DNA of 43,123 bases, taken from positions 9,628-52,750 of the forward strand of contig NATN01000001.1 of assembly GCA_002085355.1 (NCBI GenBank). The letters are read 5' to 3'. Shown piece by piece: positions 13,729 through 33,429 of this stretch. Source of the DNA: Candidatus Zhuqueibacterota bacterium 4484_87 (GTDB lineage Bacteria > Zhuqueibacterota > Zhuqueibacteria > Thermofontimicrobiales > Thermofontimicrobiaceae). Within the stretch, counting starts at the first letter, position 1. Each line of letters begins with the position of its first letter. The notes under the pieces were generated by a model. That model was given only the letters and a program-made list of their open reading frames with translations, was not told where the DNA came from and did not search any database. The position numbers and the translations under genes were made by a program.

Positions 13729-14694
13729 ATGGAAGAAGTAAAGTTACAAAAAAGAATTATTGGTATCAGTGACATTTTTTTATTGATATCCATTTTTTTG
13801 ATAGCACTGCTAATTTCCTGCGATCAAACGACTGCCCCGGTGTCCAATGATGAATTTATCGTAAAAGAATTCAATTTAATAAATCTCAATTTTAGAGATT
13901 TACCTTATGTAAGCTACTCTCCTAAGTATTTAGACCTTAACTATAAAACAGATAGTGCTGGTGTGCAGATATTTTACTATAACGGTAAATATTATTATCA
14001 CCCCGTTCAATTAGCTCAATGGATTATCATGTTTGTTGATAGTTATTATCTTGTAAAGAATGAAGAACATTTAAAAAAAGCAAAGTTGTTTACAGATAAG
14101 CTCATAGAGATTTCAACATTTGAAAAAGAAGCATTATTTTTTCCATATAATTTTGATTTTCCGTTGCATGGAAAGAGGGATCAGATGATGTTAGCTCCAT
14201 GGTATTCCTGCATGGCTCAAGGTCAGATCTTGTCTGCATTTGTTCGTCTTTACCGAGTTACTTCGATCGAAGCCTATTTAGCATATGCTAGAAAAATTTT
14301 TAGGAGTTTTACTGTTTTAAAAAATAATAACGAAATTTGGGTGAGTATGGTTGATGAAAATAAATATTTATGGTTTGAAGAATATCCAATGAATGATGAG
14401 CCTAATCATACTTTAAATGGATTTATTTTTGCGATTTACGGTCTATATGAATATTATTGGGTAACCAAAAGCACAGAATGCAAAAAATATCTTTTTGCAG
14501 CACTTGCCACTATTGAAGAGTACATAGATGATTTTCGTAATCCAGGGGATATAAGCTATTATTGTTTAAAACATAAAGAAAAAAACCGCGAATATCACAA
14601 AGTGCATACTGAACAATTAGAGTTTTTGTACAAATTTACAAAATATGAATATTTTAAATACATGCATGATTTATTTTATCTTGATTACCATTAG
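13729..14694 (+). CDS. Predicted lipoprotein with a D-glucuronyl C5-epimerase-like C-terminal domain
   Basis: The 321-aa product has a signal peptide with lipobox LLISC. The segments YYHPVQLAQW, LAPWYSCMAQGQILSAFVRLY and HTLNGFIFAIYGLYEYY match, from memory, signature blocks of the glucuronyl C5-epimerase C-terminal family (PF06662-like). Confidence 0.55.
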   Translation: MEEVKLQKRIIGISDIFLLISIFLIALLISCDQTTAPVSNDEFIVKEFNLINLNFRDLPYVSYSPKYLDLNYKTDSAGVQIFYYNGKYYYHPVQLAQWIIMFVDSYYLVKNEEHLKKAKLFTDKLIEISTFEKEALFFPYNFDFPLHGKRDQMMLAPWYSCMAQGQILSAFVRLYRVTSIEAYLAYARKIFRSFTVLKNNNEIWVSMVDENKYLWFEEYPMNDEPNHTLNGFIFAIYGLYEYYWVTKSTECKKYLFAALATIEEYIDDFRNPGDISYYCLKHKEKNREYHKVHTEQLEFLYKFTKYEYFKYMHDLFYLDYH

Positions 14695-14775
14695 TTTTTA
14701 GCATCCAGGTCGATGGATCGATTTTGAAAATTTTAATGATATTGGTGCCTAATCCAGTTATCTGTAATGCTGAAA

Positions 14776-18254: not shown

Positions 18255-19259
18255 TCATGCAATCTCCACAACCTGGCTATTATTGCGCAATGATTTCTCT
18301 GCCGCTTCCAGCGCTTTGATGACGCGCAAGCCGCTGCGCCCGTCGCTGATGGGTTTTTTCCCGTTCTGGCAACATTCGATGAAATGGTTCATTTCCCGGC
18401 GCAGTGGCTCAAAATTTTGAATGTACGGACTGATGATGTCGCCGGAACGATAGCTGAGCTGGTATTCGCCAAATGTCTCGGGATCTTTATACTCAACGCC
18501 TTTGTCATAGATTTTCACTTTTTCAATATTTTCAGTATCATCATAGACAAGCATTTTCTTGTTGCCGACAATAGCTGTACGACGCAGCTTGCTCGGTGCA
18601 AGCCAACTCACCTGCATGTTGGCAATGCATCCGTCGGGAAATTCTATGTTGATGAACGCTACGTCCGGAATATTTTTCTGCACGCAATCTTTGCCCATGG
18701 CAGAGATGCGTTTTGGTTGTTGATTCAGCCAATAAAAGAGCATAGAAAAATCATGCGGTGCCAGATCCCAAATTACGCTCACGTCTTTTTGATGCAGACC
18801 CAAATTGACGCGCGACATGCTGATATAATAAACATCCCCCAATTCCTTGCTGTCAATCAACTCTTTTATTTTTAAAACCGGCGGACTATATTCAAACGTA
18901 TGGCCGACCATGAGAACACGGTTATTTTTTTCTGCGGTTTCTACCAACTTTTCGGCTTCTTGGCTATTTTGCGTCATTGGTTTTTCCACAAAAACATGTT
19001 TTCCTGCTTCTAATAGAGCATGGGCAATGGGGAAATGTAGAGATACTGGTGTCGCGACAATGGCAGCATCGATATCATCACGACGAAGTAGCTTTTGATA
19101 GTCGCTTTCAATTTCAACTGTTGGATATTTTAATTTGATACGCTGCAATTTTGTCTCATCAAGGTCACAAGCAATTAATTTCTCTGTCGTTTGACTTTCA
19201 TAAAGATTCCTGAGCAAATTTGGGCCCCAATAACCTAAACCAATGACAGCGATATTCAT
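18255..19259 (-). CDS. Gfo/Idh/MocA-family NAD-dependent oxidoreductase (nucleotide-sugar 3-dehydrogenase candidate, WbpB-like)
   Basis: The 334-aa product has the N-terminal Rossmann motif NIAVIGLGYWGPNL and EKPM. It has the typical C-terminal alpha/beta domain and lies adjacent to the DegT aminotransferase. Confidence 0.8.
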   Translation of the reverse strand: MNIAVIGLGYWGPNLLRNLYESQTTEKLIACDLDETKLQRIKLKYPTVEIESDYQKLLRRDDIDAAIVATPVSLHFPIAHALLEAGKHVFVEKPMTQNSQEAEKLVETAEKNNRVLMVGHTFEYSPPVLKIKELIDSKELGDVYYISMSRVNLGLHQKDVSVIWDLAPHDFSMLFYWLNQQPKRISAMGKDCVQKNIPDVAFINIEFPDGCIANMQVSWLAPSKLRRTAIVGNKKMLVYDDTENIEKVKIYDKGVEYKDPETFGEYQLSYRSGDIISPYIQNFEPLRREMNHFIECCQNGKKPISDGRSGLRVIKALEAAEKSLRNNSQVVEIA

Positions 19260-19301
19260 AAGATTCCCTTTCTATAGATTAATCATTTCACAAAATGAGT
19301 G

Positions 19302-20513
19302 TTATTTTATTTTAAAATTATCGTATAGATTTGTTAATTCCCTTGCAGATAGTGACCAATTATATTTTTTGATGACAGCTTGCTTTCCGTTTTTGCCATA
19401 TTCTTTTGATGCATTTTTGATTGTCAGTACAGCGCGGGCAAAATCATCCGGTGAATGGGAGCGAAAGATTTCCCCGCATTTTGTCTCACGGACGATTCTT
19501 GCCATAGCTTTTGCGTCGGACACAATGACCGGTTTTCCCAGCGCCATGTACTGAAAAAGTTTATGCGGCACGCCGTTATCAATCAAATCATTGGATGGCT
19601 GGGGAATGATGCAGATATTTGCCGCTGCAATATAGGAAGGAGTTTTTTCAAAATCAACCCAGCCTGTGAATTCCACAAACTTTGAAATCCCCAAATTTTC
19701 TATCAACTTTTCCAGCTCTTCCCTGATACCGCCATCGCCGACGAGGATCATTTTTAAATTCGGAATCTGCGGCGCTAAAATTTTTACCCCCTGAATCGCA
19801 ACTTCCAGTTCACGTTCCGGACTGAAATTGCCCACATAGGTCAGGACAAAATTCTCTTGATATTTTTCAACTATTTCTGCATCGATTTTTAATTGGATAT
19901 ATTTATCCGTTTGCACAGTATTACCAACGATGTGTATCTTTTGCGGATTGATGCCAATAGAAGTGAGCATTTCTTTATGCTCTTCAATGACAACGATAAT
20001 TTTTTCGCACAATTTCAGGCTCATTTTTTCTAATTTTCTTGCAAATGCGGGGTTGCGAAATAAGCCGGGCAGAAATCCTTTTCTGCCCCAGACCTCCAGA
20101 GCCGCGGGATAGTTTTCGTGCATGTCAAAAACAGCGGGTAATCTAAAAAGTTTTCCGACGAAAATCGCACCCAGAGCCAACGGAAGATCGTGGACGTGAA
20201 TGAAATCGATTTTGTGAAGGCGACAGGCTTTTGCAATGTAGAAGAGCCAGATGGGATTGAAAGAAAGCGGCACGCCAAAAAGTGATTGCAGATTTTTCCT
20301 GCCAAGTCGAAAGCGAGGCAAGCGGATGATGTGAAAATTCCCGTTGATTGTTTCGAATCGCGGCAGATTTTTTTTATTATTGCAAAGCAAATAAACCTGA
20401 TACCCGTTTTGAGTGAGCGCGTCGATTTCCTTTTCCAGCCTAATGTCAGGTGGGAAATCGCTCTGGAGGACCATTAAAATATTTGCTTTGTAGGTTAGGG
20501 CGTCCTGCTTCAT
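19302..20513 (-). CDS. Family 4 (GT-B, group 1) glycosyltransferase
   Basis: The 403-aa product has a C-terminal GT1 motif region, FTGWV...ICIIPQPS...PHKLFQYMALGKPVIVSD. Confidence 0.8.
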   Translation of the reverse strand: MKQDALTYKANILMVLQSDFPPDIRLEKEIDALTQNGYQVYLLCNNKKNLPRFETINGNFHIIRLPRFRLGRKNLQSLFGVPLSFNPIWLFYIAKACRLHKIDFIHVHDLPLALGAIFVGKLFRLPAVFDMHENYPAALEVWGRKGFLPGLFRNPAFARKLEKMSLKLCEKIIVVIEEHKEMLTSIGINPQKIHIVGNTVQTDKYIQLKIDAEIVEKYQENFVLTYVGNFSPERELEVAIQGVKILAPQIPNLKMILVGDGGIREELEKLIENLGISKFVEFTGWVDFEKTPSYIAAANICIIPQPSNDLIDNGVPHKLFQYMALGKPVIVSDAKAMARIVRETKCGEIFRSHSPDDFARAVLTIKNASKEYGKNGKQAVIKKYNWSLSARELTNLYDNFKIK

Positions 20514-20726
20514 AAAATTTTTTGATTAGCAACGGTTTATCTTTTATTGTGAAATGTACACAAATATAAGAAAAAAGTTTACAAATTCAAATAAAATTTT
20601 ACATTTGTTGGGAATGTTGTTGTTTAAATTTTAGCAAATCGGTTGTCCGCACTGATAAACTGAAACAGTTATTAGAAATTTGCTTGTTGCACTTGGAACG
20701 TGACCTCAGAGTTCCCCTGTTGAAAT

Positions 20727-20764
20727 AAAAAAAGGCCAGCCGAAATTCTCGACTGACCTTTTTA
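20727..20764 (-). terminator. Intrinsic terminator after the eight-gene ExbBD/TPR operon
   Basis: The sequence aaaaaaaGGcCAGcCGAaattcTCGaCTGaCCttttt forms a GC-containing stem with symmetric bulges. It is flanked by an A-run and a T-run, and on the minus strand it is followed by TTTTTTTATTT. It lies 40 nt downstream of the stop at 20802. Confidence 0.55.
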
Positions 20765-20801
20765 ATAACGTCCTTCCGACTTTCGTCAGAATTGGCGACG
20801 T

Positions 20802-22175
20802 TTAATTTAACTTTGCAAACTGGAACGGGAAAATAAAGGTCACTGAGCCCGAATCAATGGGTTTAAACTTGAGCCGCTTGACCAAAGCCAAAATTTCACG
20901 CTCCATAGGTGGATAGTTCAGCGTAGATTCGATCACACGAGCGGAAGCGACATTACCATTTGCCGCGATCGTGAATTCGATGGACACTTTCCCGCGCAAT
21001 GTAGGTTTAATTTTCAGGTACTTATTGTAAATATAAGTAATCTGACCCTGACGCGAATTGACTGTCTGAAACACGGATTCTTCGGAGCGATAGCCCACTG
21101 CGTCGGTTGTGCCTCTCGTTGCCCGTGGTTTTACCAGATCAACAACCGTTCTCTTTTTCAACTTAACAGAGGGCACTGTCTCTGTTGCATCCATAGAAGA
21201 AAGAATATCATCAATACCGCCGCTGCCACCAGTGCCAATTAATTGATCCAGCGGATCTTCTGCATCTTTGGTATTGCTCTTCCCGACTTTCAGATTAGTC
21301 CCGCCGCCAAGGATGTTGTTCAAGTCTGCGACCAGACCTTTGTCCACCAGTGCATCGATGATGGAACTTGATTTGCCGGCAGCTCCGCCATTTGCACCGC
21401 CGATCACTGCCAATAAGCCCCGTGACGCAACGCGATTTCCTCTGCCTGATGATCGACGACCGGAACTTTTGCTGCCGGATTTGTTCGATTTACCGGATTT
21501 TTTATCGTTGGATTTTTTGTCACTTTCCGATGTACCAGTATTGGCGGCGACGCTCGAGGTGGCTTCGTTCAAAATTTCGTCCGGAGTTTTGGGGATGAAA
21601 CGAGCCAGTCGTTCGGGAATTTTGTCAATGTTGATCTCTTTCTTTTGGATAATCTGATAATCCTTCAAAGCGTAAAGAATGAGCGCATTCACAATGAGCA
21701 AAATTGTAAAAATGGATTTGAATAACAAGTCAGAGCCCAAACTTTTGATTGTCGCCCGTGTCCAAGAAAAAACCGGTGATTTGACTGCGACCGATTGCTT
21801 GGGTTGAATATATTGAAAAGAGAATTCTATTTTTGTGTCGCCGACAGTGACAACGCCCTGTTTTTCCGGCGTGAGTTTAATGAGATAGGAATCCCCCTGG
21901 CGTGGCAAAATATCGTGACGGATCAAATCCGAGATGTTCAGCGAAGAACTATCCAGCGAGATTTCCCCTTTGATAAACGGCTTGACGTTCAAGGTATAAT
22001 AGCCGTTCTGTTGATCAAACAATACGTGTTGCTTGGGATATTCTGTGCCATACAAAATCAGATTATTGTTCCCGCTTTGCCCAACAGTGAATTGTTTCCC
22101 CTTGGACAAAACATATTGTTTGGAGTGATTGGAACGGCTGACGTTTAAAACGAGATATTTATTTTTTCCTGCCAT
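20802..22175 (-). CDS. Bitopic inner-membrane protein: cytoplasmic FHA-like N-domain, one TM, S/K/G/R-rich linker, AgmX/PglI-type TonB_C-like C-terminal domain (GltG/PglI-like)
   Basis: The 457-aa product has an FHA-like region at aa about 25-120 (FTVGQSGNNNLILYG..PKQHVLFDQQNGYYTLNV...VTVGDTKIEFSF). A TM helix lies at aa about 150-170 (LLFKSIFTILLIVNALILYAL). A low-complexity linker follows (TSESDKKSNDKKSGKSNKSGSKSSGRRSSGRGNR). The C-terminus RGKVSIEFTIAANGNVASARVIES......ILALVKRLKFKPI is typical of TonB_C/AgmX-PglI domains. Confidence 0.6.
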   Translation of the reverse strand: MAGKNKYLVLNVSRSNHSKQYVLSKGKQFTVGQSGNNNLILYGTEYPKQHVLFDQQNGYYTLNVKPFIKGEISLDSSSLNISDLIRHDILPRQGDSYLIKLTPEKQGVVTVGDTKIEFSFQYIQPKQSVAVKSPVFSWTRATIKSLGSDLLFKSIFTILLIVNALILYALKDYQIIQKKEINIDKIPERLARFIPKTPDEILNEATSSVAANTGTSESDKKSNDKKSGKSNKSGSKSSGRRSSGRGNRVASRGLLAVIGGANGGAAGKSSSIIDALVDKGLVADLNNILGGGTNLKVGKSNTKDAEDPLDQLIGTGGSGGIDDILSSMDATETVPSVKLKKRTVVDLVKPRATRGTTDAVGYRSEESVFQTVNSRQGQITYIYNKYLKIKPTLRGKVSIEFTIAANGNVASARVIESTLNYPPMEREILALVKRLKFKPIDSGSVTFIFPFQFAKLN

Positions 22176-22217
22176 TGATTTCGTGTATTTTTAAGTTCAA
22201 ATAAAATTTCAGTCGAA

Positions 22218-22742
22218 TTAGTCCGGCTTGTTCACGGCTAACATGATGTCATTGAAGCCGACTCTGCCGCAGGTAAACATGATCTTTTTAATGATCAGAT
22301 AGGGCAATTCTTTATCAGCCTGAATGGAGATTTTTCCGGTGAAGCCGATATCTGTGTGAATTTCACCAATTTTTTCGCTGATGTGTCGTTTTGTTTTCAA
22401 ATCATTGAGCAAACCAGGAATGAGCAATTGATTTGATCTCATCACATCAGCAACTTTGGCAATAGGTTGTCCGTCCAATAGAATCATTTCGTCTGTGACG
22501 GCGATGATGGACGTGGTTTCCGGCACTTTTTGCGCGGTAGAATTTGGCAGTTTTAAGTCCGGAGCAACAGACATGATTTGGCCTTCTGCGGAATAACTTT
22601 TCAGCAAAAAGACCAATAAAATAGTGAACATGTCGATCATTGACGTTAGTTTCAAAGAGAAAGTCGTATCACGTTTTTTACGACGGCTGCTCACAACATG
22701 AAATGTAAAATCGTCTGGCGTTTGTTGAAAACTTTTCATCAT
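22218..22742 (-). CDS. ExbD/TolR-family biopolymer transport protein (TM Asp retained)
   Basis: The 174-aa product has the TM segment LTSMIDMFTILLVFLL with the conserved Asp (D37), followed by a periplasmic ExbD fold. Confidence 0.85.
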   Translation of the reverse strand: MMKSFQQTPDDFTFHVVSSRRKKRDTTFSLKLTSMIDMFTILLVFLLKSYSAEGQIMSVAPDLKLPNSTAQKVPETTSIIAVTDEMILLDGQPIAKVADVMRSNQLLIPGLLNDLKTKRHISEKIGEIHTDIGFTGKISIQADKELPYLIIKKIMFTCGRVGFNDIMLAVNKPD

Positions 22743-22768
22743 TTTTATTAACCATTCAAAATATGAGT

Positions 22769-23227
22769 TTAACCTGATAGAGATACATTTGGAAAACCAG
22801 TTTCGCGACAGCGATCCATGACCTGAATGATAATGTCGTATTTTACTCTGGCCTCTGGCGCGATGATGATATCCTCCGCATAGGGATATTTGCTTTTGAT
22901 TTGCTTGAGTTGTTGAACCAGCGGCGCGTAATTATACTTGTCGCCAATTCTGTTTACCGGATCAAATTTGAATCCCGGGCTTTTCACCTGAAAACCTTTT
23001 TCTTTGACAGCTAAAATTACCAGCACGAGTTTCTTTTGCTGCTGTACCTGTACCGCGCGGTTTTTACTCAACGTAGGCAATGAAAGCTCAATTACCGCGA
23101 TCTTAACAAAAGCTGCTGTCAGCAATAAAAATGGAATCAAAAGCAGAAAAATATTCATCACGGGAATAATATTGACATCGGCATCGTCAACGTGGCGATC
23201 TCTTCCCAGGGATCTTTTCAGATTCAT
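22769..23227 (-). CDS. ExbD/TolR-family biopolymer transport protein (TM Asp replaced by Asn)
   Basis: The 152-aa product has the TM segment DVNIIPVMNIFLLLIPFLL. The position equivalent to the proton-relay Asp is N25 (codon 23153-23155). Confidence 0.8.
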   Translation of the reverse strand: MNLKRSLGRDRHVDDADVNIIPVMNIFLLLIPFLLLTAAFVKIAVIELSLPTLSKNRAVQVQQQKKLVLVILAVKEKGFQVKSPGFKFDPVNRIGDKYNYAPLVQQLKQIKSKYPYAEDIIIAPEARVKYDIIIQVMDRCRETGFPNVSLSG

Positions 23228-23229
23228 CT

Positions 23230-23874
23230 TTATTTGCCCTTGCTGTTATTTTTCACCAAGATCAATTTGCTGTAAACGCGCGCTACATTTTGATTGATTT
23301 CGTCGATCAGTTCGTTGGTTTTTTCCTGAAGAACTGAATAGGCGATCATACAAGGAATAGCAGAAATCAATCCGAATGCAGTGGTGTTCATTGCCTGGGA
23401 AATACCACCGGATAACAACGTTGCTTTCATCGAAGCGTCGGCAGTTGCGACAGCCTCGAATGAAGTGATGAGACCGAAGATTGTACCCAACAATCCAAGC
23501 AGCGTAGAAACATTGGCAATTGTCGCCAGGTACGGAGTGCGTTTTTCCAGTTTGGGAATTTCTGCCAGTGCGGCTAATTCCAACGCATTCTGAATTTCAG
23601 CCGGGCTCTTGCCTGCTTCTTCAAGGCCGGCACGAAGTACTTTCGGTAGTGCGGCATTAGAGATGCTGCAAAATTCTACAGCGCTTCTGATATTTTTTTG
23701 CTGAATGAAATCGAGCAAACGGTGCATAAAGGCAGCCGTGTCGATTCGATTTCTTCCCAGAATAAAAATGGTGCGTTCAACCATAATGGCGATGCCCGAA
23801 ATTAATACCAGCAGAATAACGTACATGAACGGGCCCCCGGATCTGAAGGAACTTACGATGAAATCCAATTGCAA
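23230..23874 (-). CDS. MotA/TolQ/ExbB-family proton channel
   Basis: The 214-aa product has three TM segments. Its C-terminal signature is TLLGLLGTIFGLI.SF...GGISQAMNTTAFGLI.AIP. Confidence 0.9.
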   Translation of the reverse strand: MQLDFIVSSFRSGGPFMYVILLVLISGIAIMVERTIFILGRNRIDTAAFMHRLLDFIQQKNIRSAVEFCSISNAALPKVLRAGLEEAGKSPAEIQNALELAALAEIPKLEKRTPYLATIANVSTLLGLLGTIFGLITSFEAVATADASMKATLLSGGISQAMNTTAFGLISAIPCMIAYSVLQEKTNELIDEINQNVARVYSKLILVKNNSKGK

Positions 23875-23924
23875 AACCTCCTGTTAGAAAATTGCTAATT
23901 CCAGTTATATCTCGATTGACTTTG

Positions 23925-24326
23925 TTACCATTGAATGTAATCTTTATTTTTGAGTACGGATTTTTTTCTGTACCTGATATTTGTTTTTTCAACGTTGCGA
24001 AAGATAAGATCAAAAAACTGGCGTTCGATGCGAAGCCCGTCAACTTTGGGGTCGCTGCCAGGGACGATAAAAACAGCTTGCGGCTTGGCGATGGTGCCAT
24101 AAATTGTAAGCTGCTTTTGAATGAATTTTTTCACCTGCGTATTGGAGATGATGTTGCCGCTGCTTTTATGATCCTGCTTTTTCGTTTGAGGGTTTTCAGT
24201 AGCAAACTTTGCACCAGAGACTGGCTTGTGCTTAGCAAAACCAAACCTCACGTTGAAAGAAAAAACGAGACCTGTTACGATAACGAAATAGATTGCTCGC
24301 CGGAGCAGGTTTGTCTTATTTTTCAT
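23925..24326 (-). CDS. Small hypothetical membrane-anchored or secreted protein
   Basis: The 133-aa product has an N-terminal hydrophobic anchor (AIYFVIVTGLVFSF). It is translationally coupled (4-nt ATGA-type overlap) to the upstream TPR gene, and its operon position supports the minus-strand ORF over the antisense 204-aa ORF. I recognised no family. Confidence 0.5.
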   Translation of the reverse strand: MKNKTNLLRRAIYFVIVTGLVFSFNVRFGFAKHKPVSGAKFATENPQTKKQDHKSSGNIISNTQVKKFIQKQLTIYGTIAKPQAVFIVPGSDPKVDGLRIERQFFDLIFRNVEKTNIRYRKKSVLKNKDYIQW

Positions 24327-27292
24327 TGGTCATTCCTCTTGATTTGGTTTGTTGGCACAATTCTCTTGGGATTTGCTTCCTGTGAAAGCGCCGAATTTCC
24401 GCCCGACCCGATTTCCAATGAAAGCTTTTCCAGGTGTGCTTTTGTTTTGTCCACCCATTCGTTCTGGATGTTGTTTTTTATCGCATTTCCTAAATTTGCT
24501 TTATAAACATCAATTGCTTTCTTTTTTGCAGCAATGACTTGTTTCCCAATCGCATCCAGATATGCCTGTTTGTCTTCTTCGTTATTGTTGTATTCAGCGG
24601 GAAGCGGAGCGTTTTTGATTGATTCGGCTAATTCTTCAAATGTCATTCCTGTCTTGAACAGCGACGCAGTTGTCCATTCAGCAATTTGATACTTACCGGC
24701 TTCCACATAGTTTTTTATTGCTTCCTGCAAAAAAGTAGTTTTGCGTTTCATGGTTGCTTCAAGGGGTGGCACAATTTTGATCTGTTTGTATTTTTCAAAG
24801 ATAATTTCACCGATCATAAATTGAGCTTTTGCCGGTAAATAATCTTCGACGCTTTTTCTGCCTCTCTTAAATTCTTTGAATTTGTTCACTGTTGTCTGAA
24901 ATTCGGTCATTGCATTGGAAAAATCGTTTTGATTGTATGAAATTTCTCCAATTTTGTACAGCGCTTCAATGATCTGATCCGGATTCGCATTGGGAAATTG
25001 CTGGACAAATTGACGGTATGTATTCTTGCATTTGAACCACAGTTCCAATTGTTCATAACAATTGGCAGCGGCAAGCATCGCACGAGAAGCAAATTGTGAC
25101 GTTCGGCATTCATTCGCCACGCGCATATATTTTTCCGCCGCGTGAATCCAGTCCTGTTTCTTTTCATATAATAGTGCGGCTTTCATGAGCAGTTCATCTT
25201 TGAAACTTACATTGGGTTGTTCTTCCAGCATGCGTTCATAGGCGCGGATCGCCTTGGTAATGTCCTCCGCTTCTTCAAATTGTCCGCCCGCTTCAAAAAT
25301 TGCGGCTTTAGCGATTTGTTCGTCTTTCGTGCTGAACGCTAATTTCAGAAACTCGACAGCGGCGCGGGTGGCTTTACCCTGTTTTTTCAAAGTTTCCGCA
25401 TGTTTGAACTTTGCTGAAGCAACCAGCTTTTTTGATCTGGTGACGACATGGGCGGAATCAGGGAAAGCATCCGCCAGGTTGTTGAACCATTTTTCGGATT
25501 GCTGATATTTGCCCATTTTCAGGTAACACTGCGCGACCATTTTGATGCATTGGCCGTAGTAAGGCGACGTGCGGTATTTAGGCGCCACTGCTTTTTCGTA
25601 AAGTTTAACAGCTAAATCCCAGCGTTGCAAATTGTATAAAGTTTCAGCATATTTGATCATCACTTCCAGCAAGTTTTCACTTTGCGGCTGCTGACGAATA
25701 AAATCGTTACAAGCGCGCATGAGTTTAAACTGAGTTTCTGAAGTCACTTTAATGGGAATGATTGATTCTGTACCACCCCCGGCGAAATCCTCGATGTACA
25801 GAGTGATCGTATCCGAACTAACAGCTTGACGTTCTAAAATTTCGTAATAAGCAAGAATTCGATTAAACGCTGCCGTTTCGCGATATTCGTTATCGCCGTA
25901 AATATTCATCACTTTGTAGTACTCATCTGCTGCTTTATCAAATTCTTGAATTGCGTAATAACATTCTGCCAGATAAAAATTAACCCGCGGCGCCCGTTTG
26001 CTGTCGCGGAATTTTTTCAAATATTCTTCATATTTGTCAATTGCCTTGCGATATTCGCTGGTTTGGTTCTTTTGCTGGGCTTTTGTCTGGAATTCGGTTC
26101 CCAGGGAATACAACATCTCTTCTGACATATTTACTGCAGATTCACGGACGTTTTTTTCCTGATGTTTTTTGAGCCATTCGCTATCGGGCCCGTATCTTTC
26201 CACAAAAGCATTTTTTGCCTCTGTTGCCTGATCTTCATTCATATCCGCTTCATAACATTGGATGATCTCTTTTTGAATTTTCGGTGCATCCGGATAAAAA
26301 GGATAAAGATTTAGCAGCGTCTGATAAACACGGATAGCGTCCTGGTAAAAGTTACGTTTTTTATAGATTTCGCCCATTTTAAGCAGCACGTCCAGTGCAT
26401 AACTTTGAGTTTCGTCTTTACTCAGAATCTCTTCCAGCGATTTCGGCCCGTGGTATTCAGCGAGAGAATGCGCGATGTATTCGATAGCTTCATTGCGCAC
26501 ATCTGCTTTTGTTTTGCCCAACTGTTTGGTGTTCATTCTTTCCAGCAGAGAAATATCGCTGATCAGATAAATGAACGTGCTGATCGCGCTGGTAAAATCG
26601 TTAATGTTGTAATATGACCAACCTAATTTGTAAAGAGCATAGTTGAAATATGGATTATCCCAGCGATCGAGAAGGTGTTCGTATTCTTTGATCGCTTTGT
26701 CAAATTCCCTTTTGCTGAAATAATACTCTCCAAGCCGAAAATGAGCCTCAGCAACACGCGGGCTTTCCGGCGACTCAAAAACCAATTTTTGCAAATAGTC
26801 TTTGGCTTTTTCCTGGTTTCCTTCGTCGAGGTGAGAAATCGCCAGCCGGTACAAAATGCGGTCTTTGTAAGGCAAATTGGGGAATTTCTCCAATAATTGG
26901 TAGCAAAGATCAATGGTTTTCTGCAAATTGATGTGAGGCAAAATCGGTTCGGCGAAAATGTCGCCTTTGTCAAATTTGACGATCTCCTCGTCGTATTTTT
27001 TCATTTTTTGTTTGAATTCAAATTGCGCCTTGCTTGCATATAGCTCTGCCAATTCGAACATCAAATAAGAGATGAACGGCTGATTGGGATATTTTGCAAT
27101 CAACTGTTCATGGTGGGCAATTGTGGCGTTAATGCTCCCGATATCAATGCTTTCTGTTGTATCAGACGCGACATATTTTACCGGAAGTTGATCGATTTTA
27201 TCCGGATTGAATTGATTTTGCGCGATACTTGCTTTTGATATCCACAGACCTGCAAAAACTAAAAGAAAAATGATATACGATTTATTACGCAT
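24323..27292 (-). CDS. Large secreted TPR-repeat protein
   Basis: The 989-aa product has a signal peptide (IIFLLVFAGLWISKASIAQ). Many TPR/YbgF-like repeats run through its length (e.g. AEAHFRLGEYYFSKREFDKAIKEYEHLL, YALYKLGWSYYNINDF). Confidence 0.8.
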   Translation of the reverse strand: MRNKSYIIFLLVFAGLWISKASIAQNQFNPDKIDQLPVKYVASDTTESIDIGSINATIAHHEQLIAKYPNQPFISYLMFELAELYASKAQFEFKQKMKKYDEEIVKFDKGDIFAEPILPHINLQKTIDLCYQLLEKFPNLPYKDRILYRLAISHLDEGNQEKAKDYLQKLVFESPESPRVAEAHFRLGEYYFSKREFDKAIKEYEHLLDRWDNPYFNYALYKLGWSYYNINDFTSAISTFIYLISDISLLERMNTKQLGKTKADVRNEAIEYIAHSLAEYHGPKSLEEILSKDETQSYALDVLLKMGEIYKKRNFYQDAIRVYQTLLNLYPFYPDAPKIQKEIIQCYEADMNEDQATEAKNAFVERYGPDSEWLKKHQEKNVRESAVNMSEEMLYSLGTEFQTKAQQKNQTSEYRKAIDKYEEYLKKFRDSKRAPRVNFYLAECYYAIQEFDKAADEYYKVMNIYGDNEYRETAAFNRILAYYEILERQAVSSDTITLYIEDFAGGGTESIIPIKVTSETQFKLMRACNDFIRQQPQSENLLEVMIKYAETLYNLQRWDLAVKLYEKAVAPKYRTSPYYGQCIKMVAQCYLKMGKYQQSEKWFNNLADAFPDSAHVVTRSKKLVASAKFKHAETLKKQGKATRAAVEFLKLAFSTKDEQIAKAAIFEAGGQFEEAEDITKAIRAYERMLEEQPNVSFKDELLMKAALLYEKKQDWIHAAEKYMRVANECRTSQFASRAMLAAANCYEQLELWFKCKNTYRQFVQQFPNANPDQIIEALYKIGEISYNQNDFSNAMTEFQTTVNKFKEFKRGRKSVEDYLPAKAQFMIGEIIFEKYKQIKIVPPLEATMKRKTTFLQEAIKNYVEAGKYQIAEWTTASLFKTGMTFEELAESIKNAPLPAEYNNNEEDKQAYLDAIGKQVIAAKKKAIDVYKANLGNAIKNNIQNEWVDKTKAHLEKLSLEIGSGGNSALSQEANPKRIVPTNQIKRNDQ

Positions 27293-27310
27293 GACTATTT
27301 GTGCCCCATT

Positions 27311-28702
27311 TTATTTTCCTCTGCTGCTCCCCAATTCCTTCAAGAACAAAGCTCTGGAAACGCCGTATTCTGCATAGCCCCGCCAGTCTTTTCTTCTTTC
27401 CCGGCGTTCCACAAGTTTGTTCATTCGTGCGATTTCTTCCTGCATGTAAACAAGCTGATCCTTTTCAGCACGTAAATTTTCAATCATTTTTTTACGAACT
27501 TCCTGAAGCCGTTTCTTCTCGGTGAGAAGATACTCGGGAATCTTCTGGCCTTTTCCGTCTAACGGAAGCGCATCGAGCAACTTTGTCTCCTCGATGAGGA
27601 GCTTAACTTTCAAATTTTCAATGTGCTGCCGTTGTGATTTCAAATGATAATTAACCTTTTGAACCAAAGCCGGCAAATTCTGTTGATCAGGAAAAATTTC
27701 AAGTATTTTTTTATAAGAAGAAATCGCTTCGTCGTATTGGCCAAGTGCAATGTAGGATTGACCGAGTACGAAATAGGACTCTTCTGCATTTTCGCTGTTA
27801 GGATATTTTTTGACCAATTTATTTAAAACGCGGATTACTTTTTCGTATTCATTTAATTTCAGATAAGCCCAGCCAAGGCCTAACAACGCGTCTTGGTAAT
27901 TTTCATGTTCCTCGGCTATCGAGGAAAGTTGGTCTGCAGCGGCTTTGTATGCTTGTAGTTCATAATAAATGAGCCCAAGCGTCAAGCGCGCATTGTCAAC
28001 AATATTCCGTCGTTCCGGACTGATGACTGGCAGCGCGGTGATTTTTCGGAAGAAATCCACAGAGGCGGCGACATTCGATTTCTTCAGGTAACACAAAGCT
28101 GTCGTGTAAAGGGCATTGGCGTAAAACTCGCTGCGGTCGCCGATTTTCTTGAGCACGTTTATAGCCATGTCATAATTTTTCAGATTGTAATGACTCTGCC
28201 CCGCCAGGTAGCTGGCTTCATTCAGAACTTTTTGATCTCTGGTTTTTTTGATGAGCACATAATAAACGCGCAGCGCTTGTTTGTATTTTCTCTGAGCGTA
28301 ATAATTGTTTTCCAGACCCAACAGCGCTTCGGGGATCATCGGGCTGCGTCGGTATTTTTTTATAAGGAAGTTATATAGTCTGGTGGAGCCGGAATACAAT
28401 TCCTCCTGAAATAAACATTTGCCCAGATAGGTAACTACCTGATCCAATTGGCTGAATTTAGGATAATAATCCATGATAATGACCAATTCTTGAGCCGCTC
28501 TCCAGTACTCTCCCTGATTGTAAAGCTTAACTCCACTGCTAAAAATTTTGTTTGCCGCGCGCTCCATTTCTTTATCCGAACTGTTTTGCGGGAAGTCACT
28601 GGGCGTAGCAGCGTGCACAGCGGCTCCTGAAAAAGAACTGATCAGGATAAAAACTGACGTGACAAAAAGGAGTTTCAATAATATGTGTGAAATAGATTTC
28701 AT
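27311..28702 (-). CDS. Secreted TPR-repeat protein with a C-terminal coiled coil
   Basis: The 463-aa product has a signal peptide (LLFVTSVFILISSFSGAAVHA) and TPR repeats (ALLGLENNYYAQRKYKQALRVY, ALLGLGWAYLKLNEYEKVI, SYFVLGQSYIALGQYDEAISSYKKILE). Its tail is a heptad-rich charged segment. Confidence 0.8.
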   Translation of the reverse strand: MKSISHILLKLLFVTSVFILISSFSGAAVHAATPSDFPQNSSDKEMERAANKIFSSGVKLYNQGEYWRAAQELVIIMDYYPKFSQLDQVVTYLGKCLFQEELYSGSTRLYNFLIKKYRRSPMIPEALLGLENNYYAQRKYKQALRVYYVLIKKTRDQKVLNEASYLAGQSHYNLKNYDMAINVLKKIGDRSEFYANALYTTALCYLKKSNVAASVDFFRKITALPVISPERRNIVDNARLTLGLIYYELQAYKAAADQLSSIAEEHENYQDALLGLGWAYLKLNEYEKVIRVLNKLVKKYPNSENAEESYFVLGQSYIALGQYDEAISSYKKILEIFPDQQNLPALVQKVNYHLKSQRQHIENLKVKLLIEETKLLDALPLDGKGQKIPEYLLTEKKRLQEVRKKMIENLRAEKDQLVYMQEEIARMNKLVERRERRKDWRGYAEYGVSRALFLKELGSSRGK

Positions 28703-28720
28703 AAGCGAACGTTTACTGTC

Positions 28721-29731
28721 CTACTTTTTTTTCTTGCCATTTTCTTCGAGCGATTTTTTCATTTTTTCAAGGTCTTGTTTTACTTTTTCCCGTTTTCGCC
28801 TGATGGCTTCTAACTTTCTTCGCTCTTCTTCGTCTTTTTTGCGCTTTAATTTCGCGCTTTTATCAAAATATTTATAAACAGAAAAACGATGAGTGATGCC
28901 GGCACGTACCTGCCATTTGTAGTATTCTTTGTGGAAAATATCCGTTTCCTTCAGCGAATCGTATTGAGTCAGAGCAAAGTCAAAACTGATGTCGATGACA
29001 TTGTCCCACGGTCCCAGAAAACGAATGCCCTGGCTGATTCTGGACGAATTTTGGTTAAATGGCAAATCTTTTTTATTGAAAAAGATTTCCCCACTGTATT
29101 CAGTGTAGAATTGAACTGATCGAATGGGAAATTTAAATCCGGCACCTATGAACAATTGGTCTATTTCAGACGTGAAATAGGTGTCAGTGACGTCATGATC
29201 CATGTAGCCGAAGTTTAAGTTAATTTTCAACGGATGTCGCGGCATCATTTTCAAAAAGTCCAGCGTGATGATGCCTCTTGCACTCCAGGCAGCTTTATTA
29301 GTGAAAAACGTTTCAAACGGGACATTGCCTTTGCTGGCAGTTGGAATGATGAAACTCCCTGCCAATCCAAATTTAAAAAAGTCTGTTCGCAAGGGCGTTA
29401 AATATTTAATCCCAAGGAGAGTATTGCCGCGCATTCCCCAGAGATGTTCCTGATCGTCCTGATAGGGGATCCAGTTAAGATATGTTTCCAGATAGTGCGC
29501 CAATCCAAAAGTAGCGCTTAAATTTGAGCGATAGTATTTTGCCAGACTTGCTTTGCTTGCCTGTTTCATGTAGGTGGAAACATTCCATTGAACAATGATG
29601 TCCGCTGGCTTAACCGGATCTGCTGATAGCACCCGAAGCATTCCTTTTCCCCCGGTGAGACCAATTTGGCTGTGAACGATAGAATTGAATCCGAACAATA
29701 GAACCAGAATGAATAAGGGAAATTTTCTCAT
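28721..29731 (-). CDS. Putative outer-membrane beta-barrel protein with a highly charged C-terminal helical tail
   Basis: The 336-aa product has a signal peptide (FILVLLFGFNSIVHSQ). Alternating hydrophobic/aromatic strand patterns end in HRFSVYKYF. A K/E/R-rich extension of about 47 aa follows (KLKRKKDEEERRKLEAIRRKREKVKQDLEKMKKSLEENGKKKK). Confidence 0.5.
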   Translation of the reverse strand: MRKFPLFILVLLFGFNSIVHSQIGLTGGKGMLRVLSADPVKPADIIVQWNVSTYMKQASKASLAKYYRSNLSATFGLAHYLETYLNWIPYQDDQEHLWGMRGNTLLGIKYLTPLRTDFFKFGLAGSFIIPTASKGNVPFETFFTNKAAWSARGIITLDFLKMMPRHPLKINLNFGYMDHDVTDTYFTSEIDQLFIGAGFKFPIRSVQFYTEYSGEIFFNKKDLPFNQNSSRISQGIRFLGPWDNVIDISFDFALTQYDSLKETDIFHKEYYKWQVRAGITHRFSVYKYFDKSAKLKRKKDEEERRKLEAIRRKREKVKQDLEKMKKSLEENGKKKK

Positions 29732-29813: not shown

Positions 29814-29842
29814 AATTTAAAATATTGAATAAAAAATGTCAA
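29814..29842 (-). promoter_or_regulatory. Candidate sigma70-type promoter for the eight-gene operon
   Basis: The minus strand reads TTGACA (29842-29837), a 17-nt spacer, then TAAATT (29819-29814), about 83 nt upstream of the ATG at 29731. This is a by-eye match only. Confidence 0.3.
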
Positions 29843-30550: not shown

Positions 30551-31129
30551 ATGAATCATGATGAAGCGGTTTTGGTCCGCAAAGCGCAAAAAGGTCATGC
30601 ACCTTCATTTGAACAGTTAGTGCGCCGTTACGATGAAAATATCATGCGTTTGCTCTGTCATTTGCTCAATGACTCAGAAGATGCCAGGGATGTGTACCAG
30701 GAAGTTTTTTTCAAGGTGTACAAGTCCATTGCTTCGTTTAATTTTCGCAGTGAATTTTATACGTGGGTTTATCGTATCGCTTTAAACACGGCAATTAATT
30801 TTCGAAAGAAACGCAAGAAAAATTGGCGACTGGAAGGCGTGGAATATTTCGCTGCACAAAACGAATTGGATCACATAAAAATCGAAGACGCCGTAGCGAA
30901 TCCCGAACATAATTTTTTGAATTCCGAGCTTTCCCTGCAAATTGCCGATGCCGTTGATCAGCTTTCCCCGAAACAACGCGCTGTGTTTGTGTTGCGGCAT
31001 TATGAAGGAATGAAACTCAAGGAAATTGCAAAGATTCTTCAACTGAACGAAGGGACGGTTAAGAATTACCTGTTCCGCGCTTTGGAAAAAATGAGACGAA
31101 ATTTGCATGAATATAAATATTTTCAATAA
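30551..31129 (+). CDS. ECF (group 4) sigma-70 family RNA polymerase sigma factor
   Basis: The 192-aa product has region 2 (F.QLVRRYDENIMRL...DARDVYQEVFFKVYKS...F.TWVYRIALNTAINF.RK). Region 4 is also present (LSPKQRAVFVLRHYEGMKLKEIAKILQLNEGTVKNYLFRALEKMR). Confidence 0.92.
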   Translation: MNHDEAVLVRKAQKGHAPSFEQLVRRYDENIMRLLCHLLNDSEDARDVYQEVFFKVYKSIASFNFRSEFYTWVYRIALNTAINFRKKRKKNWRLEGVEYFAAQNELDHIKIEDAVANPEHNFLNSELSLQIADAVDQLSPKQRAVFVLRHYEGMKLKEIAKILQLNEGTVKNYLFRALEKMRRNLHEYKYFQ

Positions 31130-31140
31130 AGGAAACAGAG

Positions 31141-32088
31141 ATGGCGTGCACAAAAAAATATGAAAAATGGATTTGGCTTTCCATGTACGACGAATTGACC
31201 GCTGATGAGAATAAAGAATTGATGCAGCATCTACAATCGTGCGAACAATGTCGGCGCGAGTGGGAAAACGCCAAACAATTTGAAACAAAATTGTCGGAGA
31301 AGGAACCACTTCAGGTATCCGAAGAAATTTTGCAGCAAAGCCGGGATGCGTTGTTTCACCGCATTCGTATGGCGGAGCGTTATGGCACGAAACCGTTGTG
31401 GCTGGAAAAATTGCGCAGAATTGTCACATTGGATTTGCGTCCCCAATGGCGGCTGATGACAGCGCTGAGTATGCTAATCGTCGGGGTTTTTCTGGGCGCG
31501 AAATTTTTTCAACAGTCACCTTCATTGGATTCAGCACTTCTTCAGGATATATCTTTTCAAGCCGAATCTATCGACCGCATTGAGAATCTATCTTTTGATC
31601 CACAGAAAAATCAAGTGATGGTCCGCTTTCGTACTGTTCAGGAGCGTGATGTGCAAGGTCGTCCTGATGATCCGATGATTCAAAGACTATTGGCCCGAAC
31701 TTTGGTGAGCGATCCGCGGCCTAATTTACGGCTCCGCTCAGTGAATGCGTTGCGCGAAACAAAGAGCTATAGTCAGCAGGTTTTAGATGCATTGATTGAA
31801 GTGCTGGAAAAAGATGACAATTCCGGTGTGCGTTTGAAAGCGATCAAAATCTTAAATTCAATTCCTTGGAACGAAGCAGTGCAACCCATGCTGAGCCGCG
31901 TGTTCATCAAAGTCTTGCTGCAAGAAACGAATCCCGCCGTTCGTATTGAGGCTGTCAATGCATTAGGCAAAATATTGAGCAAAGATACGATTAACATTCT
32001 GAATAAAGCAGCAGAAAAGGACAGCAATGAATACATACGTAACAAAGCTGCAATTTTGCTGGAGAAGGTAAAAAACGCGCAATTTTAA
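31141..32088 (+). CDS. Anti-sigma factor (zf-HC2) with one TM and a C-terminal HEAT-repeat domain
   Basis: The 315-aa product has the zf-HC2 motif HLQSCEQC near the N-terminus and a TM helix LMTALSMLIVGVFLGA. HEAT-like repeats follow (NLRLRSVNALRE, SGVRLKAIKILNS, NPAVRIEAVNALGKI, EYIRNKAAILLE). It lies immediately downstream of the ECF sigma gene. Confidence 0.72.
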   Translation: MACTKKYEKWIWLSMYDELTADENKELMQHLQSCEQCRREWENAKQFETKLSEKEPLQVSEEILQQSRDALFHRIRMAERYGTKPLWLEKLRRIVTLDLRPQWRLMTALSMLIVGVFLGAKFFQQSPSLDSALLQDISFQAESIDRIENLSFDPQKNQVMVRFRTVQERDVQGRPDDPMIQRLLARTLVSDPRPNLRLRSVNALRETKSYSQQVLDALIEVLEKDDNSGVRLKAIKILNSIPWNEAVQPMLSRVFIKVLLQETNPAVRIEAVNALGKILSKDTINILNKAAEKDSNEYIRNKAAILLEKVKNAQF

Positions 32089-32118
32089 AAAAAGCAAACA
32101 ATAACTTTAGGAGGAATA

Positions 32119-33429
32119 ATGATGAAAAAAACAAAGACGATTTTTATTCTGGTTTTAGCTGCTTTGCTGCTGGTGGTGTCGATGAGTATTGCACAGCAGT
32201 TAAAGAAGCATGGGCGCTATTACATTGCTGATATTGAAAAAGAATTTAAAGTAGCCCCAGGTGGCATACTGGAAATTAAAGATGTCCGCGGCGATGTGCA
32301 AATTACCAGTTGGAGCAAAAATGTTGTTTACATTCACGAGCGCAGAAAAATGGATGTGTACACCAAGGAAGAAGCCGAAGCTGTACTTAAAGACCAAAAA
32401 TATCAGTATCAGAAAATCGGAAATAAAATTGTTGTGGGCATGAAAGGTAGCTATCGTTCATACATGAGCAGCTATTTTGATGTCAAATTGCCGAAAAAAT
32501 TCAATGCGACAGTGAGTACCGCGGGTGGTGATTTGAGAGTTTCCGATTTGGAAGGAGAGGTCAAGTTAGTGACTTCGGGCGGCGATATTGATGTGAGCAA
32601 AATTGATGGCATTGTAAAAGCCACAACATCTGGCGGAGATATCTCGGCTAATAAAATATCGAAAGAAGCTATCCTTACCACTTCCGGCGGTGATATTGAC
32701 ATGGATGATATCAAAGGAGATGTCAAAGCTGCGACTGCCGGTGGAGATCTTTCGCTGCGGGAAATAGCCGGGAATGTTCGCGCTTCAACTTCTGGCGGAG
32801 ATATCATCGTGGAGAAGAATACGGGCAATGTCTCGGTTCAAACATCAGGTGGAGATATTGAGTTATACGATGTCGGCGCTCAGGTGAAAGCAACCACTTC
32901 TGGCGGCGATGTCGTCGTGCGTCGTAGCAGCGGAGATGTGAAGGTCGTGACTTCTGGTGGTGATATCGATCTGACAGATATTCAAGGGAAAATAAGCGCT
33001 ACGACTTCCGGCGGAGATATTGAAGCGACAACGGTAATGAAGGGCATTAAAGTTACCACTGCCGGAGGAAATATTGAGCTGGTGGATATTCGCGGCTTTA
33101 TCGACGCGAAAACTTCCGGCGGGGATATGAAAGCAGAATTGACTTTGCAGGATTTTTCTAAAGATCATCATGTGACAATGAACACAGCCAGTGGTGATAT
33201 TGAGTTGAGAATTCCTGCCCAATTACCGGCGACAATAAAAGCCCGTTTGAAAGTTACCCCCCGGGCACGCGATGATTACGACATTATTTCTGACTTTCCT
33301 ATTTCAATTAAAAAGGAAAAAGAAGGGAGAAATGAAATCATCTCAGCGACAGGAGAAATTAATGGCGGCGGTGATGTGATTGAGTTGAAAACGACTAACG
33401 GGAATATTTCAATTATTAAAGCGAAATAG
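32119..33429 (+). CDS. Secreted DUF4097-like ('putative adhesin') repeat protein, predicted beta-helix
   Basis: The 436-aa product has a signal peptide (IFILVLAALLLVVSMSIAQ). It contains about 11 consecutive 18-aa units T(S/A)GGD(I/L)x(5-6)G.V.. (e.g. TSGGDIDVSKIDGIVKAT, TSGGDIELYDVGAQVKAT). These correspond to a 54-nt coding periodicity over about 32518-33140. Confidence 0.75.
   Translation: MMKKTKTIFILVLAALLLVVSMSIAQQLKKHGRYYIADIEKEFKVAPGGILEIKDVRGDVQITSWSKNVVYIHERRKMDVYTKEEAEAVLKDQKYQYQKIGNKIVVGMKGSYRSYMSSYFDVKLPKKFNATVSTAGGDLRVSDLEGEVKLVTSGGDIDVSKIDGIVKATTSGGDISANKISKEAILTTSGGDIDMDDIKGDVKAATAGGDLSLREIAGNVRASTSGGDIIVEKNTGNVSVQTSGGDIELYDVGAQVKATTSGGDVVVRRSSGDVKVVTSGGDIDLTDIQGKISATTSGGDIEATTVMKGIKVTTAGGNIELVDIRGFIDAKTSGGDMKAELTLQDFSKDHHVTMNTASGDIELRIPAQLPATIKARLKVTPRARDDYDIISDFPISIKKEKEGRNEIISATGEINGGGDVIELKTTNGNISIIKAK

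Follow-up and report, generated by a model that had tools for sequence, protein, structure and literature searches.

The window, a stretch of 43,123 nucleotides of contig NATN01000001.1 (positions 9,628 to 52,750, forward strand) from Candidatus Zhuqueibacterota bacterium 4484_87, carries on its minus strand a compact cluster of eight genes (20802-29731). We interpret this cluster, with a probability of roughly 0.7, as the form taken in KSB1/Zhuqueibacterota by the Agl-Glt/Nfs core complex: a self-contained, envelope-spanning machine run by the proton-motive force. Within the FCB (Fibrobacteres-Chlorobi-Bacteroidetes) group, Zhuqueibacterota (KSB1) is a phylum without cultured members. The interpretation draws on the gene set, the folds, a conserved synteny and the homology of the products of the third, the fifth to seventh and the eighth gene to Glt, Nfs or core components. 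A first-pass annotation made from the sequence had proposed an Agl-Glt/Nfs core-type cluster in place of a canonical Ton or Tol-Pal system. This central claim stood: the last gene encodes an AgmX/PglI-type domain together with an FHA domain, the third encodes an NfsD homologue, and the motor genes correspond one-to-one to those of proteobacterial core clusters.

As defined by Luciano et al. (2011), the core consists of gltC, gltD, gltE, gltG, aglR, aglQ, aglS and one extra gene (PMC3169522). It was found clustered in Gamma- and Betaproteobacteria, Geobacter and Fibrobacter, where its function was reported as unknown, and the core genes alone do not support gliding (PMC3169522). The genes gltA, gltB, gltF and gltH were classed as later additions in Myxococcales and Bdellovibrionales (PMC3169522). 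Wartel et al. viewed the core as a possible basal transport machinery (PMC3858216). The account of the 2011 study in the first-pass annotation, an ancestral core of unknown function in non-gliding lineages, was accurate. Two KSB1 genome papers (PMC9012183 and PMC11683472) make no mention of the eight-gene cluster. We numbered the genes in the direction of transcription, from g1 (336 aa, the first gene) to g8 (457 aa, the last gene). The cluster and its signals are as follows:

g1, 28721..29731, minus strand: 336 aa, outer-membrane 12-strand beta-barrel with a signal peptide
g2, 27311..28702, minus strand: 463 aa, secreted tetratricopeptide repeat (TPR) protein whose C-terminal region is a coiled coil, likely GltC/NfsC-like to judge from position and profile
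g3, 24323..27292, minus strand: 989 aa, secreted TPR scaffold, GltD/NfsD homologue
g4, 23925..24326, minus strand: 133 aa, small secreted protein, putative counterpart of the core complex's extra small gene
g5, 23230..23874, minus strand: 214 aa, TTG start, ExbB/TolQ/AglR-type stator channel subunit
g6, 22769..23227, minus strand: 152 aa, ExbD/TolR paralogue 1 (ExbD1), Asn in place of the membrane Asp
g7, 22218..22742, minus strand: 174 aa, ExbD/TolR paralogue 2 (ExbD2), membrane Asp kept
g8, 20802..22175, minus strand: 457 aa, GltG/NfsG-like transducer
candidate promoter, 29814..29842, minus strand: sigma-70-like TTGACA-17-TAAATT, about 85 nt upstream of g1
intrinsic terminator, 20729..20763, minus strand: 16-bp stem and T-run, 39 nt past g8

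All eight open reading frames (ORFs) were recovered on the minus strand, where they had first been placed, and the spacings from g1 to g8 are 18, 18, -4, 50, 2, 26 and 42 nt. Pfam matches comprised TPR families in g2 and g3, MotA_ExbB in g5 (7e-31), ExbD in g6 (2e-21) and g7 (1e-14), and TonB_C in g8, just above its cut-off (27.1 against 24.6 bits); neither g1 nor g4 matched any model in Pfam or NCBIfam. A TTGCAAT-N17-TTAAATT motif was present 60-170 nt upstream of g1 in 11 of 29 related loci (shuffled sequences: mean 0.7, maximum 4), a pattern that does not count the window's own TTGACA variant. The promoter call thus has comparative support, since the motif recurs upstream of g1 in related loci. 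With this conserved sigma-70-like site, the gene spacing and the terminator, the tightly packed single operon of the first-pass annotation was confirmed. An extracytoplasmic function (ECF)-type promoter upstream of g1 was also considered; the conserved motif is of the sigma-70-like, housekeeping type.

The g8 product matched the NCBIfam model for the AgmX/PglI C-terminal domain (NF033768) with 80.4 bits against a cut-off of 40, and its C-terminal domain is 37% identical to that of Myxococcus xanthus NfsG (BLASTP, 8e-16). Against the GltG equivalog model it scored 104.7 bits, far under the cut-off of 650, and it is therefore not a GltG equivalog. In this alignment residues 21-454 of g8 correspond to positions 218-646 of the 650-position model, spanning the central FHA domain, membrane helix, linker and C-terminal domain and leaving out the N-terminal FHA domain of GltG. 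The protein is laid out as a cytoplasmic FHA fold (residues 1-122), a membrane helix (about 138-169), a low-complexity stretch, a linker (246-335) and an AgmX/PglI domain resembling the TonB C-terminal domain (343-455). AlphaFold2 modelled with confidence a beta-sandwich over 1-122 and the C-terminal domain over 343-455; between them came the membrane helix over 138-169 and a low-confidence stretch. With Foldseek the N-terminal domain matched the FHA domains of GarA, OdhI, Rv1747 and CT664 (3gqs, TMt 0.67), and the C-terminal domain matched TonB C-terminal domains (6sly); 3gqs and 6sly have also been reported as structural neighbours of GltG/GltJ (PMC11761067). These results substantiate the earlier description of the 457-aa protein as a GltG/PglI counterpart, with an FHA-like cytoplasmic domain beside its membrane helix and an AgmX/PglI-type C-terminal domain.

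At the phosphate-binding Arg position the g8 FHA domain has Gln (VGQ), and Pro replaces the Ser of the S-x-x-H motif (YPKQH). The domain is probably degenerate, serving to dock and not to read or bind phosphothreonine. The linker is the best-conserved region of g8 (mean column identity 0.71), even though its pLDDT score (predicted local distance difference test) is below 50. Such a combination of conservation and disorder is expected of a segment that folds on a partner, as in the published Agl-Glt model, where a segment of GltG wraps and folds onto GltD (PMC11761067).

The motor genes point to the same family. The best matches of g5, g6 and g7 were the ExbB, ExbD1 and ExbD2 proteins, respectively, of core clusters in Steroidobacteraceae and Syntrophotaleaceae, one-to-one and collinear. 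Identity of g5 to the ExbB of proteobacterial core clusters was 41-43%. Among core ExbBs, those from proteobacterial, Caldithrix and Myxococcales-labelled loci gave g5 116-164 bits and those of Fibrobacterales 95-98 bits. The canonical ExbB paralogue that related KSB1 genomes carry scored lower (76-87 bits). The best solved relative of g5 was TolQ (8odt, 54.6 bits). The claim of an AglR/Q/S-like motor, one MotA_ExbB protein with two ExbD proteins, was supported. Zorya/MotAB-type anti-phage defence was considered and rejected; PADLOC gave only weak ZorA matches to g5 (at most 21.7 bits) and nothing else.

The two ExbD paralogues differ at the canonical membrane Asp position. The g6 family has Asn there in 51 of the 57 aligned sequences (the window and 56 orthologues), whereas all 60 aligned sequences of the g7 family have Asp. 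Asn-bearing ExbD1 proteins extend to Syntrophotaleaceae (Desulfuromonadales), Burkholderiales and Caldithrix; the exceptions are Ala in Fibrobacterales and Asp in four gammaproteobacterial sequences. A canonical ExbB-ExbD-ExbD-TonB set in the same KSB1 genomes has Asp in both ExbDs. By these alignments, the asymmetry is specific to this type of motor and is not a property of the canonical Exb set of the relatives. With Asn in one ExbD and Asp in the other, one of these two stator subunits is predicted to be protonatable and the other not. The published AglR5-AglQ-AglS model is likewise heterodimeric in its TolR-like subunits (PMC11761067).

Among the secreted proteins, g3 has the clearest counterpart. 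In BLASTP almost the whole protein aligned with M. xanthus NfsD (2.7e-37 for residues 57-719, 1e-5 for 664-957), whose sequence was taken from the nfsA-H locus. NCBIfam has no GltD model. It also matched the D-like genes of the Steroidobacteraceae and Syntrophotaleaceae clusters (6e-50 and 6e-39, respectively), and the 989-aa protein was correctly proposed as the GltD counterpart. The other TPR protein, g2, had been taken for GltE. A hidden Markov model (HMM) of its family matched NfsC (9e-10) and the first TPR gene of the proteobacterial cores (1e-10 to 7e-23) and did not match NfsE. In hhalign comparisons it aligned with the C family over 293 columns (98.9%, E 1e-17) and with the E family over 103 columns (E 1.4e-7), and the NCBIfam GltC model gave a weak 30 bits against a cut-off of 450. 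These profiles suggest that g2 is likely GltC-like, and the GltE assignment did not survive.

The 133-aa product of g4 had been described as a small membrane protein and as the counterpart of gltF. It has a cleavable-looking signal peptide, as do its homologues, and is probably secreted or periplasmic. The 42 homologues in related loci belong to a family with a conserved IEIxGxIaKPQxVFIIPG motif. This family aligned with the small-gene family of eight proteobacterial clusters and Caldithrix abyssi, which occupies the same position just upstream of ExbB and has in common with it the motif I-x-G-x-x-E/A-L/K-P-K/Q-V-x-Y/F-I-V/I-P. The link came from profile-profile comparison; the g4 HMM itself gave one marginal match (E 0.008) in loci from outside KSB1. 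With moderate confidence we take g4 to correspond to the extra small gene in proteobacterial cores, and neither earlier description of it was retained.

The g1 product was modelled by AlphaFold2 as a barrel of 12 strands with a helix at residues 291-335 (pLDDT 83.8; predicted template-modelling score 0.74), and Foldseek placed it nearest to FapF (5o67, E 5e-9) and the COG4313 channel 4rl8, in agreement with its first description as an outer-membrane beta-barrel. Conserved features are an N-terminal GGKGLxRVLSA segment and the charged C-terminal helix of 45 residues, which is predicted to be periplasmic. The parallel that had been drawn with the GltA/B/H barrels failed on sequence, and GltA/B/H and gltF lie outside the published core. 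A search of 1.84 billion representative proteins with the g1-family profile returned 268 relatives. Some have 380-420 aa and the same charged C-terminal helix; others, of 500-1000 aa, continue after the barrel into repeat domains and an OmpA peptidoglycan-binding domain. Around the shorter relatives, in metagenome loci, no motor genes lie nearby. In about 14 unrelated loci of this kind the gene directly after the barrel encodes a TPR protein, about 1200 aa long, to which the g3 family HMM gives 142-260 bits. That the two occur together repeatedly speaks for a physical link of the barrel with the GltD-like scaffold, and it also suggests that the KSB1 operon joins two modules. In other lineages (L121-L136, e.g. 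L126 6884-14860) the barrel-TPR pair is preceded by a conserved secreted trio (about 340, 245 and 170 aa) and a nucleotidyltransferase, with no motor genes within 10 kb. Furthermore, one KSB1 contig (L148) carries a distant barrel paralogue (10001-11113) 8 kb from the start of a true cluster, g1-g2 (18843-21113).

Every one of the eight genes has dozens of homologues at 30-80% identity, and those of g8 and g1 come almost entirely from metagenome-assembled genomes (MAGs) labelled candidate division KSB1, Zhuqueibacterota or, more coarsely, Calditrichaeota. We scanned one genome per species, which gave 67 loci, called ORFs in these loci and searched them with the eight window proteins. The order and strand of g1 to g8 were identical in 30 species-level loci, and the remaining KSB1-type loci were interrupted by contig ends. 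The barrel gene was present in 30 of the 32 related loci with sufficient upstream DNA. The gene-neighbourhood check that the first-pass annotation had called for thus found the TPR and barrel genes syntenic with the motor genes in 30 related species-level loci. Throughout one KSB1 sublineage g2 is broken into a pair of neighbouring ORFs, about 220 and 230 aa long (L003, L026, L030, L032, L038-L040, L043-L045, L047, L048, L050 and L052; L048 and L052 are also without a barrel at that place).

Outside KSB1, the clusters of Syntrophotaleaceae and Steroidobacteraceae run in the order C-like, D-like, E-like, small gene, ExbB, ExbD, ExbD and AgmX/PglI protein; apart from the missing E-like gene, the KSB1 operon keeps this order behind its barrel gene. 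Two MAGs labelled Myxococcales encode the same single-FHA, GltG-like architecture as g8. A six-gene form occurs in a cultured organism, Caldithrix abyssi DSM 13497 (L074, 1641-10324). It encodes a D-like protein of 1790 aa, a small protein of 104 aa, ExbB, one ExbD with Asn and one with Asp, and a GltG-like protein of 362 aa that has no FHA domain. The Fibrobacterales loci (L056 and L057) encode ExbB, ExbD, ExbD and a GltG-like protein with no D-like TPR gene within 10 kb, and they gave no help in placing the KSB1 cluster.

Several observations weigh against the assignment to the core family. No GltE homologue was found: none of the eight proteins matches the GltE model NF033758 and nothing in the KSB1 clusters matches NfsE, whereas the E-like genes of the proteobacterial clusters do (8e-18 and 4e-13). 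The GltC-like call for g2 is softened by the promiscuity with which TPR profiles align, g2 and g3 also aligning with each other at 4e-20. The link between g4 and the core small gene is only moderate (hhalign 80%, E 1.4e-5), and the resemblance of g4 to NfsF is weak and confined to a short motif (hhalign E 0.002). The barrel has no detectable sequence relation to GltA/B/H; hhalign against NfsA, NfsB and NfsH gave nothing, and it is missing from its position in two of the 32 loci (L048 and L052). The g1 profile likewise found no homologue among the Nfs barrels or in the proteobacterial, Fibrobacter and Caldithrix loci.

The working of the machine can be proposed by analogy with the published Agl-Glt AlphaFold model, TolQRA and ExbBD-TonB (TolQ5R2 and ExbB5D2 structures), from which the stoichiometry and every protein contact given here are taken. 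The g5 protein would form a pentameric inner-membrane channel of the ExbB/TolQ type around a g6/g7 ExbD heterodimer in which only g7 has a protonatable Asp. The transducer g8 would dock on this stator through its membrane helix and the adjacent FHA-fold domain, and its disordered linker and TonB-like C-terminal domain would cross the peptidoglycan and bind the GltD-like scaffold g3. The small protein g4 and the GltC-like g2 may bridge the scaffold to the barrel, probably through the charged periplasmic C-terminal helix of g1. Proton flow would in this way be converted into force or movement on an outer-membrane anchor. A further, tentative reading of rather low probability is a complete, minimal, phylum-wide, proton-driven machine that would unite two older modules, an Agl-type stator with its GltG-like transducer and a module of an OmpA-anchor-derived barrel and a giant TPR protein. 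With its asymmetric Asp/Asn stator, such a machine would act mechanically on the outer membrane itself, for example by tethering or constricting it or by moving an anchor laterally.

Of the candidate outputs, an action on the outer membrane like that of Tol-Pal is the most plausible, although we hold it as no better than a possible reading. The motor, the TolA-like g8, the CpoB-like TPR proteins and the barrel derived from the OmpA family would tether or pull the outer membrane in the service of integrity or division, an explanation that concerns output and is compatible with the core-family assignment. It is ranked first because g5 and g6 score best on the TolQ and TolR models (85.5 and 43.8 bits), the closest solved relative of g5 is a TolQ, the wider barrel family includes proteins ending in OmpA peptidoglycan-binding domains, which are structural outer-membrane anchors, and the cluster, preceded by a promoter of the housekeeping type, is kept throughout the phylum. 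Both g2 and g3 also exceed the cut-off of the YbgF/CpoB TPR model TIGR02795 (91 and 146 against 90.1 bits). That match reflects the type of repeat and not orthology, since NfsD nearly reaches the same cut-off (86.8 bits); furthermore, g3 and g8 are homologous to NfsD and NfsG, and no TolB or Pal is encoded in the cluster. Gating of the barrel ranks second and is unlikely. In that case g8 would act on g1 as TonB does, opening it for import or export of, for example, a secreted polypeptide or a hydrophobic compound. The TonB_C fold of g8, the strongly conserved N-terminal segment of g1, which could be a plug or docking strand, and the nearest solved folds, a gated 12-strand polypeptide exporter and a channel, are in its favour. 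However, the likeness of 12-strand barrels is generic (template-modelling score 0.5-0.6, about 10% identity), the OmpA anchors on g1 relatives suggest a structural role, the cluster occurs without g1 nearby in two loci and in Caldithrix and Proteobacteria, and the partner of the TonB-like domain in the published Glt model is the TPR scaffold and not a barrel (PMC11761067).

The first-pass annotation had suggested surface-polysaccharide deposition in the manner of Nfs, or gliding in the manner of Agl-Glt, and had drawn a spore-coat analogy from the neighbouring polysaccharide genes. Homology of g3, g8 and the motor to Nfs, Glt and Agl components fits such an output, and the glycan genes of the window (GT4, Gfo/Idh, DegT, GT2 and an ORF at 14776-15897) do sit immediately downstream of the cluster. 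None of the five was found in any of about 45 related loci, and the terminator at 20729-20763 separates them from the cluster. The adjacency in the window is coincidental, because the glycan genes are absent from every related locus, and the analogy is left without support from gene context. GltA/B/H/K, GltI/J and CglB had no match in the cluster either, and the core genes by themselves do not support gliding (PMC3169522). With the glycan linkage not conserved and the specialised components absent, polysaccharide deposition and gliding are not favoured, and we consider them quite improbable. Least probable is that the cluster is an ordinary TonB-ExbB-ExbD system and powers TonB-dependent receptors whose genes lie elsewhere. 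Homologues are annotated as "energy transducer TonB" and the Pfam TonB_C match of g8 passes its cut-off, but g8 falls in the AgmX/PglI subfamily and carries an FHA domain, and the motor is obligately linked to TPR and barrel genes. Neither the cluster nor the annotated related loci L001-L004 carry a gene for a TonB-dependent receptor. In many relatives a separate canonical ExbB-ExbD-ExbD-TonB set (TonB of about 215 aa), with Asp in both ExbDs where g6 has Asn, lies convergent just downstream of the cluster, at the place where the window has the glycan block (L001 11539-14248; equivalents in L009, L012-L016, L019, L020, L022, L028 and L041). Domain searches of the cluster and the same annotated loci found no TolB or Pal domains, and the first-pass statement that the cluster encodes no TolB, Pal or TonB-dependent receptor holds. 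Weighed against these alternatives, assignment to the Agl-Glt/Nfs core family remains the preferred reading.

Upstream of g1, and divergent from the cluster, lie three further genes:

30551-31129, plus strand: ECF sigma factor (Pfam), divergent from the cluster
31141-32088, plus strand: anti-sigma factor with an HLQSCEQC motif and HEAT repeats (Pfam and sequence)
32119-33429, plus strand: secreted TSGGDI-repeat protein of 436 aa (sequence; no Pfam hit)

Beside the cluster in related loci we found the ECF sigma factor in 19, the anti-sigma factor in 18 and the TSGGDI-repeat protein in 11 cases. The sigma/anti-sigma module occurs in two arrangements, either divergent upstream or downstream on the same strand. 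This linkage suggests that the module (30551..33429) is a candidate regulator functionally linked to the cluster. Elsewhere in the window, the G+C content of the glycan block falls to 0.30 within 14001-15897; the 373-aa product of its ORF at 14776-15897 has no Pfam match, and the glycan genes are broken up by a Na+/H+ antiporter gene and mevalonate genes. The mevalonate-pathway cluster (9369-13671) includes a 745-aa ORF (11434-13671) that fuses HMG-CoA reductase with a GHMP-kinase domain. A seryl-tRNA synthetase gene (2010-3147, minus strand) is present as two overlapping ORFs, one for the N-terminal domain (2491-3147) and one for the catalytic core (2010-2618), and this split could be a frameshift or an assembly error. 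An efflux locus (33488-39640) encodes AcrB (1038 aa), a TetR regulator and an 810-aa ORF with outer-membrane-factor (OEP) and membrane-fusion (HlyD) domains in one frame.

That the core occurs in another FCB-group phylum will not surprise a specialist. New and open to testing are a barrel dedicated to the cluster, an FHA domain that has been kept, a stator with Asn in one ExbD and Asp in the other, and the module of barrel and TPR protein. A whole uncultured phylum of this group conserves the core, with its own outer-membrane end-piece and an FHA domain of the stator-docking kind, and the KSB1 cluster offers the clearest compact list of parts so far from which to model the assembly across the envelope. 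Two of these results lend themselves to concrete tests: the two ExbDs conserve their Asn/Asp asymmetry, and away from motor clusters the barrel repeatedly pairs with a GltD-like TPR protein. KSB1 itself has no cultured member, and C. abyssi DSM 13497, with its six-gene version, is a possible experimental host. If the tentative proposal of a two-module machine performing mechanical work is true, the cluster would replace or complement Tol-Pal and would show the ancestral job of the machinery behind the gliding and spore-coat motors of Myxococcus.

Compared with FapF and the COG4313 barrels, g1 shares the fold (Foldseek E 5e-9 to 4e-6), and FapF also has a periplasmic coiled coil. Sequence identity is low, however, the helix of g1 is C-terminal whereas that of FapF is N-terminal, and no fap or phenol-degradation gene context accompanies g1. 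The likeness to Tol-Pal covers the stator, which is TolQ/TolR-like, a protein built like TolA (one membrane helix, then a long linker and a C-terminal domain of the TonB/TolA type), TPR repeats of the CpoB type, and an outer-membrane anchor with peptidoglycan-binding relatives. Unlike Tol-Pal, the KSB1 cluster has neither the TolB beta-propeller nor the Pal lipoprotein; it has very large TPR scaffolds, two TolR paralogues of which one is without the Asp, and a cytoplasmic FHA domain.

With the Nfs and Agl-Glt systems the cluster shares the NfsD homologue g3, the NfsG-related C-terminal domain of g8, two different TolR-like stator subunits and an envelope-spanning layout that ends in outer-membrane barrels. 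It also keeps the FHA domain adjacent to the membrane helix, which in the published model docks on the AglR pentamer (PMC11761067). In contrast, g8 is without the N-terminal FHA domain of GltG/NfsG, and the KSB1 motor genes lie inside the cluster and not at a separate locus. The cluster lacks GltE/NfsE, the GltA/B/H-type barrels (TIGR04565, CglE), GltK, CglB, GltI and GltJ, and its barrel belongs to a different family. The NCBIfam models for GltA/B (TIGR04565), GltH/CglE, GltF/CglF, GltK, GltI, GltJ and CglB matched none of the eight proteins, whereas they do detect Nfs proteins. Closest is the published core complex, likewise one operon: a TPR gene, GltC-like there and likely so in KSB1, precedes the gene for a GltD homologue about 1000 aa long, a small secreted protein is encoded right before the motor with its TolQ-like and two TolR-like genes, and the AgmX/PglI TonB-like protein comes last. 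The KSB1 operon departs from it in having no GltE-like gene, in beginning with a dedicated 12-strand barrel gene, in the FHA-fold N-terminal domain of g8 where the proteobacterial core proteins have a coiled coil, and in its host phylum, KSB1/Zhuqueibacterota, which is new for the core.

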